This document shows, piece by piece, positions 58,352 to 58,494 of a stretch of DNA of 64,000 nt. The notes beneath the pieces are model-generated. The model was not told the DNA's origin, did no database searches, and saw only the letters and a program-made list of their open reading frames with translations. The position numbers were made by a program, and so were the translations under genes. This DNA is from Escherichia phage WPEC5. The first letter of the stretch is position 1. Each line of letters opens with the position of its first letter. The DNA lies in sequence record PV654397.1; one strand, given 5' to 3'.

Positions 58352-58494
58352 TTGACAAGTGCATCCAGTACTGGCATAATTACTACATCAAGACGAAACA
58401 GTCACTAACCCACCGGGTGCCGAGATCCGTCTATTAAATGATTCAGTACTGAAAAAGTAACGGGGAGTTATTATCTCCCCGCGTTGTTATTTTG
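58352..58494 (+). ncRNA. Candidate short plus-strand transcript (promoter, CCCACCGGGTGC leader, terminator)
   Basis: Plus strand TTGACA, 17-nt spacer, CATAAT at 58352-58380; hairpin GGGGAG...CTCCCC at 58462-58480 followed by a T-rich run; no ORF. Confidence 0.35.

Follow-up and report, generated by a model that had tools for sequence, protein, structure and literature searches.

A conserved promoter-to-terminator cassette of Rak2-like jumbo phages, predicted to specify a small RNA, in Escherichia phage WPEC5

In a 64,000-nt stretch of Escherichia phage WPEC5 (PV654397.1; the window), two minus-strand genes are separated by a segment in which a promoter, a short GC-rich box and a hairpin follow one another on the plus strand. 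This raises the question of what such a unit produces. A preliminary description had proposed a small RNA of ~110 nt, antisense to the gene array. The window is 94–99% identical to the Asteriusvirus jumbo coliphages (PBECO4, 121Q, G17 and WPEC3; ~350–384 kb), which are PBECO4/121Q-like members of the Rak2-like group. Rak2-like jumbo phages (PBECO4, 121Q, RaK2, K64-1, GAP32 and CBB) have been widely isolated, often for therapy or biocontrol, and most of their early genes have no assigned function. No transcript-level study of their early region was found in the literature. Small minus-strand genes surround the unit, many of them with a TTGCAA-16-TATAAT promoter and a 5′-UTR hairpin upstream. 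The unit and its immediate flanks are made up as follows.

58317–58290, minus strand: promoter of the next gene, TTGCAA-16-TATAAT (promoter scan)
58322–58351, plus strand: A/T-rich UP-like region upstream of the −35, read from the sequence
58352–58357, plus strand: −35 hexamer TTGACA (promoter scan), invariant in 12 aligned copies from Escherichia and Klebsiella phages
58372–58380, plus strand: extended −10, TGgCATAAT, in which the −10 hexamer CATAAT is 58375–58380 (promoter scan)
58387, plus strand: predicted transcription start, the A of a conserved CAT 7 nt past the −10, inferred from position
58389–58435, plus strand: full match to the covariance model R1 (HP1, box and tail)
58392–58403, plus strand: 5′-proximal hairpin HP1, GAC-gaaaca-GUC, with a purine-rich loop, from covariation across copies
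58408–58420, plus strand: box ACCCACCGGGUGC, consisting of the mini-hairpin HP2 (ACCC-ACC-GGGU) and GC, and including CCCACCGGGTGC (58409–58420)
58421–58435, plus strand: conserved tail CGAGAUCCGUCUAUU, for which the cassette consensus is RGARNUGUAUCUAUA (42-copy profile)
58444–58451, either strand: palindrome CAGTACTG in the A/U-rich linker, read from the sequence
58461–58481, either strand: predicted bidirectional intrinsic terminator hairpin, CGGGGAG-uuauuau-CUCCCCG, terminator-like on both strands by scan
58482–58496, plus strand: U-rich tract CGUUGUUAUUUUGUA, the predicted RNA 3′ end, read from the sequence
58487–58738, minus strand: converging gene, an 83-aa ORF (phrog_33522) that shares the terminator at 58461–58481

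The promoter was found as first described, TTGACA and CATAAT being 17 nt apart. It matches the consensus at 11 of 12 positions and the spacer ends in TGg, giving the TG of an extended −10. The CAT at the predicted start is kept across the copies of the cassette described below. The UP-like region separates this promoter from the divergent promoter of the next minus-strand gene, and the unit as a whole sits between one gene's terminator and the next gene's promoter. The box CCCACCGGGTGC was likewise present after the promoter; with at most one mismatch it occurs six times in the window, against 0.02 expected. The AGTACT of the linker is over-represented in the window (260 occurrences, 21 expected).

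The hairpin GGGGAG...CTCCCC was confirmed, and in phages G17 and Muenster its equivalent bears a terminator annotation. The T-rich run said to follow it is present but only moderate on the plus strand (CGTTGTTATTTTG), where it covers the stop codon (58487–58489) and last codons of the converging gene. This gene is probably 73 aa long, starting from the ATG at 58708. The finding that the hairpin is terminator-like on both strands is in keeping with the earlier suggestion that it may also end the minus-strand gene at 58487, and both this hairpin and its Klebsiella equivalents are predicted to terminate the converging gene. As in bidirectional intrinsic terminators generally, a GC-rich hairpin flanked by a run of A and a run of T would serve the converging gene and the small RNA. 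A stem-loop with a U tract is present on each strand, and nothing about the arrangement is unusual for such terminators; the plus-strand U tract of the Escherichia phages is weak and lies over coding sequence.

No ORF of at least 30 aa is present in 58381–58496 on either strand, in agreement with the preliminary description, and the sole AUG of the unit, as read from the sequence, begins a four-codon frame. A small protein was rejected both for this reason and because the tail shows indels and substitutions without 3-nt periodicity across the cassette copies. A tRNA or tmRNA was also rejected, none being found by ARAGORN. A search of the whole window against Rfam gave nothing at the gathering threshold; for 58300–58560, with E values up to 10 allowed, the best match scored 16.9 bits against a threshold of 56. 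The motif sequence was not found in any paper in the literature search, and the literature on Asteriusvirus, CBB and Sharanji contained no description of it. The module is absent from Rfam and from the genome annotations inspected, both of which would gain from including it.

The block from promoter to terminator is conserved in related phages. Five Klebsiella Alcyoneusvirus phages have a homologue with ~71% identity over ~140 nt. The parts that are invariant or nearly so between the Escherichia and Klebsiella phages are the −35, the −10, the leader, ACUAACCCACMGGGUGC, UCUA and AGUACU; the −10 is CATAAT in the former and TATAAT in the latter, and the AGTACT in the linker is invariant in both. 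HP1 is kept by means of different bases, GAC/GUC in the Escherichia phages and AGC/GCU in the Klebsiella phages. The terminator stem also shows compensatory variants (GGGGAG/CUCCCC, GGGGAUC/GAUCCCC and GGGAGAC/GUCUCCC), a covariation that was read by eye, the hairpin variants being out of register in alignment A2. In the Klebsiella phages the plus-strand U tract (CUUUUUCUUU) is strong and in non-coding DNA, whereas in the Escherichia phages it is weak and in part constrained by the coding sequence of the converging gene. The 83-aa genes that flank the unit in Escherichia and Klebsiella phages were rejected as orthologues (18 of 98 aa identical), and in a blastn comparison of the two groups the regulatory segments aligned and the flanking genes did not. 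As the unit is kept while its neighbouring genes are unrelated, it is conserved as a module in its own right.

When all occurrences of the box were aligned with their flanks, CCCACCGGGTGC proved to be the core of a larger element of 47 nt, composed of HP1, an RCCC-AYM-GGGU hairpin and a 15-nt tail. The common layout is a sigma-70-type promoter, ~7 nt, CAT, HP1, a spacer of ~3 nt, RCCC-AYM-GGGU (HP2) followed by GC, and the tail. In a profile of 42 copies, conservation spans −9 to +20 around GGGTGC and then drops to an A/T-rich background. The stem of HP1 has 3–5 bp and the loops are purine-rich (e.g. AGAUAA, GAGAAA, GCGAAA and AGAACAA). There are 20 distinct stems, including GAC/GUC, CGC/GCG, AGUC/GACU, UGAG/CUCA, GGAG/CUCC, ACCG/CGGU and AGCA/UGCU. 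A stem of at least 3 bp was present at the fixed position in 39 of the 42 copies, compared with a mean of 23 and a maximum of 32 for shuffled leaders. All four HP1 pairs vary on both sides in the gap-free seed alignment. In that alignment 98% of cells were paired for the two-hairpin structure (97% for HP1), and over the seed and 65-copy alignments the figure for HP1 was 93–97%; the observed value was reached by none of 500 shuffles, and slid controls gave 12–53%. The covariation of HP1 persists on 65 distinct model-aligned copies. As the copies are related within and between genomes, the shuffle statistics overstate their independence, and the diversity of the stems is considered the stronger argument for HP1. 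On this comparative evidence, HP1 is constrained at the level of RNA.

HP2 and the tail are almost invariant, one compensatory case (CCU/AGG) being seen in HP2. The HP2 loop is 3–4 nt long across the copies, a variation that is unusual for a spacing-sensitive site in duplex DNA. Because HP2 and the tail barely vary, an RNA-level role for them rests on orientation and loop length and not on covariation. The copy in the unit scored 52.7 bits against R1, a score that is not independent since this copy belonged to the seed; its tail variant, AUCCGUCUAUU, is also found in the CBB copy at 889–935. The fold energy of the whole RNA is unremarkable (z = −1.17 for the copy in the unit and −2.26 for its Klebsiella homologue). 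A pseudoknot in which the HP1 loop pairs with the tail (AGAUA:UAUCU) was examined manually and rejected, as it can form in some copies while others have none or a different register, with no consistent covariation. The possibility that the box is the −35 of an alternative promoter was also rejected. The hexamer 16 nt past GGGTGC is A/T-rich and often lacks the A2 and T6 of a −10, and both the fixed link to the upstream promoter and the covariation of HP1 oppose this reading.

Ten R1 matches were found in the window, all of them within 43738–62942; the other 43 kb gave nothing above noise. The following accompany the copy in the unit.

43738–43779, 45993–46039, 49276–49317, 51632–51678 and 53288–53334, minus strand: five sense copies (R1)
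60803–60838 (plus strand) and 60854–60899 (minus strand): convergent, tail-to-tail pair (R1)
62680–62726 and 62896–62942, plus strand: two copies in the terminal non-coding region (R1)
62757–62769, minus strand: degenerate box facing the copy at 62680–62726, a convergent arrangement

The plus-strand copy at 60803–60838 has a 16-mer, CTAACCCACCGGGTGC, in common with the unit. Equivalent plus-strand units start at 60762, 62644 and ~62858, which contradicts the earlier statement that the unit would be the only plus-strand transcript here. The terminal non-coding region also contains solo tail-like copies (TACGCCCAAAAT) that lack the box, near iteron-like repeats.

Cassette copies occur in three contexts: sense to a gene, in convergent pairs, and stand-alone antisense. 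In four of the five sense copies between 43738 and 53334 the terminator hairpin overlaps the −35, the exception being 51632–51678, and in each of the five a separate promoter-like site follows before the next gene. For the window's six sense copies taken together, the terminator stem lies over the −35 in four, as in GGGATTGACTCCGGTCAGTCCC and likewise in several copies from relatives, and the second promoter-like site precedes the gene in all six. No terminator is found between a sense copy and its downstream gene. In sense copies the module would form a 5′ leader, barring processing of the transcript or its termination at the tail by some other mechanism. In the convergent pairs the tails abut and the boxes are ~45 nt apart; such pairs are present in CBB (889/951, 3699/3761 and 20721/20783), with equivalents in GAP32, Munch and pEa_SNUABM_12.

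The unit belongs to the stand-alone antisense copies, which have a hairpin and U-rich tract 30–60 nt past the tail. Others are found in Muenster (4048–4094), Munch (12000 and 3307), CBB (10120), GAP32 (12858) and pEa_SNUABM_12 (9121), amounting to one or two per lineage in all six lineages examined; the relatives with such copies include phages of Salmonella, Pectobacterium, Cronobacter and Erwinia. In a stand-alone copy of Munch the hairpin comes directly after the stop codon of the upstream gene. Most cassette copies are sense to genes, and a third or more point away from any gene. The description of the RNA as antisense to the gene array holds for this copy, but antisense orientation is not a defining property of the cassette, since most copies are sense.

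Among relatives, stretches of vB_Ec-M-J, Muenster, CBB, GAP32, the Erwinia phages pEa_SNUABM_12 and Hallingskeid, and the Salmonella phage Munch were scanned; four of these stretches are 30–32 kb long and that of GAP32 is 24.9 kb. R1 found 72 copies, 65 of them distinct, in eight Rak2-like loci. The six lineages with the module have hosts in Escherichia, Klebsiella, Salmonella, Cronobacter, Pectobacterium and Erwinia. Comparison with vB_Ec-M-J, in which the direct terminal repeat (DTR) is annotated as 1–21,525, showed that the right ~20 kb of the window falls in the DTR, and by this comparison the physical genome end would be just beyond position 64,000. The homologue of the unit in vB_Ec-M-J, at 5554–5600, is inside this annotated 21,525-bp repeat. 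In Muenster the homologue is within a 20-kb terminal repeat predicted by PhageTerm, the stretch searched being wholly inside the repeat. For Sharanji, PhageTerm has given a DTR of 20.7 kb (PMC11895373). In CBB and vB_Ec-M-J every copy lies inside the annotated repeat, the copies of Munch and pEa_SNUABM_12 are all in the first ~21 kb, and those of GAP32 are within its 24.9 kb. No copy was found further out in any of the four 30–32 kb stretches. In every stretch searched, cassettes were confined to the part that belongs to the DTR.

A BLAST search with a 63-nt consensus matched 58 phage records, all Rak2-like and from phages of six host genera. The matches are mostly in unannotated DNA, and none carries an RNA or regulatory annotation. 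In IMG/VR the pattern was confirmed solely in contigs of ~350 kb and one fragment of 109 kb. A sigma-70-like promoter is present just upstream, on the same strand, in all 68 distinct matches, with a score of at least 8/12 in every case; 94% reach at least 9/12, compared with 4.2% of random positions. Mimicry of a host element was considered and rejected. In bacterial and archaeal genomes totalling 596 Gb, a 35-bit pattern gave 12 scattered single matches, in unrelated MAGs, against a rough chance estimate of ~35, and none was in Enterobacterales. A link to the neighbouring 203-aa protein family was rejected too, as none of 78 unrelated viral contigs with homologues of this protein contains the module.

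The unit, then, is one copy of a ~10-copy, clade-wide cassette family that the preliminary description had missed, and an isolated "possible sRNA" has become a testable member of a defined family. What is established is a promoter-to-terminator unit without coding capacity, which belongs to a conserved multi-copy family and is independent of its neighbouring genes. The cassette is present ~10 times per direct terminal repeat, i.e. the predicted early region, in Rak2-like jumbo phages. Comparative evidence lends support to a discrete unit of ~105–110 nt where a small RNA of ~110 nt had been proposed, and from it we infer the RNA itself. Judged from its sequence, the stretch is very probably a real non-coding RNA gene of ~105 nt.

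The explanation that we favour, with somewhat more than even confidence, is that 58352–58496 is a stand-alone copy of an autonomous immediate-early small-RNA cassette, of which the RNA itself would be the product. Host sigma-70 RNA polymerase would read it from the near-consensus promoter, starting at the predicted A58387, through a 5′ module of ~50 nt (HP1, the mini-hairpin box and the 15-nt tail) and the A/U-rich linker to the shared bidirectional terminator. This copy is predicted to yield a free RNA of ~105 nt, extending from 58387 to ~58482–58496. The autonomy of the cassette as an RNA unit is suggested by its occurrence in either orientation and by the fact that a sense copy always leaves the gene's own promoter in place, and also by the drop in conservation within a few nt of the tail and the tail-to-tail contact of the pairs. 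Points that tell against this explanation are the weak plus-strand U tract of the Escherichia phages, the ordinary fold energy of the whole RNA, the near-invariance of HP2 and the tail, and the lack of a terminator between a sense copy and its gene. As soon as the DNA has entered, the module would be produced abundantly, to act as an RNA that binds a protein by its sequence, its partner being a conserved host factor or a conserved early or injected phage protein. Since neither the box nor the tail varies among phages that infect six host genera, binding of a conserved protein, host or phage-encoded, seems the most likely role of the RNA, although we hold this with low confidence. A covarying RNA module under the control of near-consensus host promoters would offer a good way to approach how Rak2-like phages begin infection.

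Action by base pairing in trans was rejected for the module, as the mean duplex energy with 17 early-gene 5′ UTRs was within 1 sd of that for shuffled sequences; the resemblance to Hfq-dependent trans-acting sRNAs is limited to the architecture (5′ conserved region, A/U linker and terminator). A wider proposal, which is speculative and in our view rather unlikely, is that the ~10 cassettes per repeat (~20 per packaged genome) are the RNA arm of a new immediate-early system for host takeover or transcription control. A first-minute flood of the 50-nt module might capture a host factor conserved in Enterobacterales or load a phage factor onto the polymerase, and the convergent pairs might make "anti-box" RNAs that pair with all other copies, giving a built-in timer or shut-off.

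The module might instead be a promoter-proximal control element acting in cis, resembling lambda nut, the boxB-boxA leader of rrn or an ops-type pause and loading site. The GNRA-like purine loop of HP1 would then bind a phage protein and the box and tail a host factor or the polymerase, and the elongating polymerase would resist terminators or Rho across multi-gene early units. The inverted copy studied here would stop at its terminator early in infection and could later read through, antisense, into early genes. The fixed position of the module, ~5–55 nt past the start of near-consensus promoters, is consistent with this, as is the finding that four of the six sense copies of the window, and several in relatives, begin at a terminator and so at the head of a new transcription unit. 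HP1 has a covarying stem with a conserved loop and the linear box is invariant over six host genera, as for a host-factor site; the box also contains G-N9-UG, which we read as a candidate match to the general pause signature. It is hard to see, however, why a third or more of the copies should face away from any gene or why stand-alone copies should meet a terminator-like hairpin within 30–60 nt, and the strong U tract in non-coding DNA of the Klebsiella phages suggests that termination is wanted there. Tail-to-tail convergent pairs are difficult to reconcile with antitermination, and by eye there is no resemblance to boxA (CGCUCUUA) or ops (GGCGGUAGnnUG). We know of no N-like protein in the Rak2-like clade and of no N-, Q- or RfaH-like gene identified in these phages. 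A control element is considered unlikely. More improbable is a local role that follows from orientation, in which the plus-strand unit provides a cis-antisense RNA, transcriptional interference or promoter modulation. Convergent transcription could insulate the two minus-strand genes or damp read-through from 58487–58738, or the back-to-back promoter could modulate that at 58317–58290 through shared UP DNA or supercoiling. The unit lies exactly between one gene's terminator and the next gene's divergent promoter, the terminator side is arranged alike in Munch, with the hairpin right after the upstream stop codon, and a read-through transcript, should one arise, would be complementary to the RNA. 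On the other hand, a local role leaves unexplained both the conservation of HP1, box and tail and the identical modules in copies that are mostly sense, and the module is kept where the neighbouring genes vary between genera.

A slightly smaller probability still is given to the block acting as DNA or as an RNA–DNA hybrid, either as a shut-off operator for early promoters or as an R-loop replication origin. T4 oriF and oriG are transcription-primed (R-loop) origins, and T4-like replication genes are present in the Rak2-like clade. A G-rich RNA followed by easily melted A/T-rich DNA might form such an origin, with convergent pairs as bidirectional starts, and the order of strong promoter, GGGUGCGGAG-type RNA and A/T-rich DNA would suit it. 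The elements are grouped in the terminal repeat and the terminal non-coding region, beside iteron-like repeats, and these repeats together with the solo tail-like copies keep this reading alive. All 65 of 65 copies, however, have one fixed orientation to the promoter, and the covariation of HP1 indicates a folded single strand, which argues against a role at the DNA level. The spacing within HP2 varies, and ~10 origins in 21 kb are implausible. Least probable of all, and very improbable, is that this copy is a functionless by-product, an inverted shuffling cassette of the PeSL kind left by recombination. The early region is indeed built of repeated promoter/terminator cassettes between small variable ORFs, as in PeSLs (PMC4122927), and the neighbouring genes differ between genera. 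Yet the promoter, the folding HP1, the box, AGUACU and the covarying terminator have all been kept between Asteriusvirus and Alcyoneusvirus despite unrelated flanks, and one or two stand-alone antisense copies have been kept in each of six lineages. An autonomous small-RNA cassette is preferred to all of these alternatives.

Comparison with known systems places the cassette as follows. It is like lambda nut sites and the boxB-boxA-boxC antitermination leader of rrn in being promoter-proximal and in combining a variable-stem hairpin, with a GNRA-like purine loop, and a strictly conserved linear sequence; the order, hairpin and then box, is rrn-like rather than lambda-like. It differs in that the 42-copy profile contains no boxA-like sequence and that many copies of the module have no downstream gene or face a terminator, the copy in the unit facing only its own. 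With ops/JUMPstart, which recruits RfaH, it shares a GC-rich, early transcribed sequence of 12–13 nt, a possible mini-hairpin and a G-N9-YG pause signature, but the sequence is different, and ops occurs once, at the head of a long operon, and always in sense. As the defining sequences are absent, the resemblances to nut, the rrn leader and ops are functional analogies only.

In the Pseudomonas jumbo phage PA5oct, very abundant ncRNAs of 236–451 nt are made from the terminal repeat throughout infection (PMC7318152). PA5oct is a distant relative within the same wider phage group, and its ncRNAs may be regarded as a precedent for non-coding RNA output from a terminal repeat. They were rejected as homologues, the first 40 kb of PA5oct, with both ncRNA regions included, containing neither the box nor the module.

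The PeSL cassettes of T4-like phages consist of a stem-loop and a promoter, with no mention of a conserved transcribed module (Arbiol 2010; Comeau 2014, PMC4122927). As in PeSLs, a terminator stem-loop and a near-consensus sigma-70 early promoter are repeated here between small variable ORFs in a plastic early region, and the cassette is kept while neighbouring genes are swapped. Unlike in PeSLs, the promoter is followed by a transcribed motif of 47 nt, with a covarying hairpin and an invariant box and tail, and the cassettes occur in both orientations, form convergent pairs and are confined to the direct terminal repeat. The unit itself does not have the PeSL layout, its stem-loop being ~80 nt downstream of the promoter and the conserved transcribed module being present. 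Of the window's six sense copies, four do look like PeSLs to which a conserved transcribed motif has been added.

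The minus strand of the window, which is the gene-coding strand, carries nine copies of the E. coli Chi sequence GCTGGTGG, whereas about 0.18 per strand would be expected, and every one of the nine falls in the terminal-repeat part, the right-hand ~20 kb. The positions are as follows.

63411, 56524, 52001, 50538, 49271, 46913, 45509, 43930 and 43706, minus strand: Chi
3183, 56579 and 63416, plus strand: Chi

A Chi cluster with equal strand bias was found in vB_Ec-M-J, CBB, GAP32, pEa_SNUABM_12 and Munch, where 7–11 sites lie in the first ~23 kb and none beyond it; no strand-biased cluster was found in the Pseudomonas relative PA5oct. 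Judged from sequence, the orientation of the sites would be compatible with protection against RecBCD entering from the right genome end. Two of the sites are paired in a perfect, hairpin-forming palindrome, and the inferred genome end is ~700 bp away. vB_Ec-M-J has a counterpart pair at about 595/600, and Munch has one at about 491/496.

63404-63423: CCACCAGC-ttgt-GCTGGTGG, Chi in both orientations

This palindrome lies within 62200-64000, a region at the inferred genome end that takes in most of a ~1.9-kb stretch for which the related phage G17 has no CDS. CAGTACTG palindromes are numerous here and two further kinds of repeat were observed.

63110-63218: iteron-like TAGCC(G/A)T repeats, five copies
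within 62200-64000: TACGCCCAAAAT-type repeats, four copies; 63236 and 63262 solo tail-like, without box

The region may serve as an origin, in packaging or in the control of injection.

AGTACT, usually in the form CAGTACTG, occurs 260 times in the whole window against 21 expected and is densest at 44000-64000. Copies occupy promoter spacers, immediately 5′ of the -10; others precede the gene promoters, and the small-RNA unit (58352-58496) has the motif in its linker. The motif was also enriched in every Enterobacterales relative checked; enrichment was not found in PA5oct.

At four places on the minus strand the terminator hairpin GGGATTGACTCCGGTCAGTCCC contains the TTGACT -35 element of the next promoter inside its stem.

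53354-53373, 49337-49356, 46059-46078 and 43799-43818, minus strand: GGGATTGACTCCGGTCAGTCCC hairpin

At these predicted hairpins one segment of ~22 bp is common to the termination of one unit and the initiation of the next. A second promoter class, AAAAAGTAC-TTGCAA-16-TATAAT, stands 5′ of many small terminal-repeat genes on the minus strand (43000-62000), and 17 of the 18 minus-strand matches to its pattern are in the terminal-repeat part. At the sites read it is followed by a GC-rich 5′-UTR hairpin and then GGUAA..AGGA..AUG.

58317..58290, 58786..58759 and 59269..59242, minus strand: examples of this class

In Erwinia phage Hallingskeid (L013, 2975-3062) a TTGACA..CAGTACTGGCATAAT..CATCAAGACGA promoter and leader start, as in the cassettes (promoter, HP1 hairpin, box and tail), directly drives a gene without box or tail, so the RNA module need not accompany this type of promoter. 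On the minus strand at 51551-51624, five GATCAA repeats (Dam/GATC sites) surround a promoter-like site, and the cassette copy at 51632-51678 lies directly upstream of that site.

One 16-mer, CTAACCCACCGGGTGC, is shared without a mismatch by the small-RNA unit (58405-58420) and the plus-strand member of the convergent (tail-to-tail) cassette pair (60808-60823). As a result, the 203-aa gene (59926-60537) has in its minus-strand leader a perfect 16-nt complement to the predicted RNA; this pairing partner was not present in the Klebsiella phages.

Among the terminal-repeat genes of the relatives, one is annotated as encoding a DksA/TraR-like zinc-finger protein, which could be an early RNA polymerase modulator.

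vB_Ec-M-J (L017), 12349-12606: DksA/TraR-like gene
G17 (L001), 133-390: DksA/TraR-like gene
Munch (L099), 4428-4688: DksA/TraR-like gene
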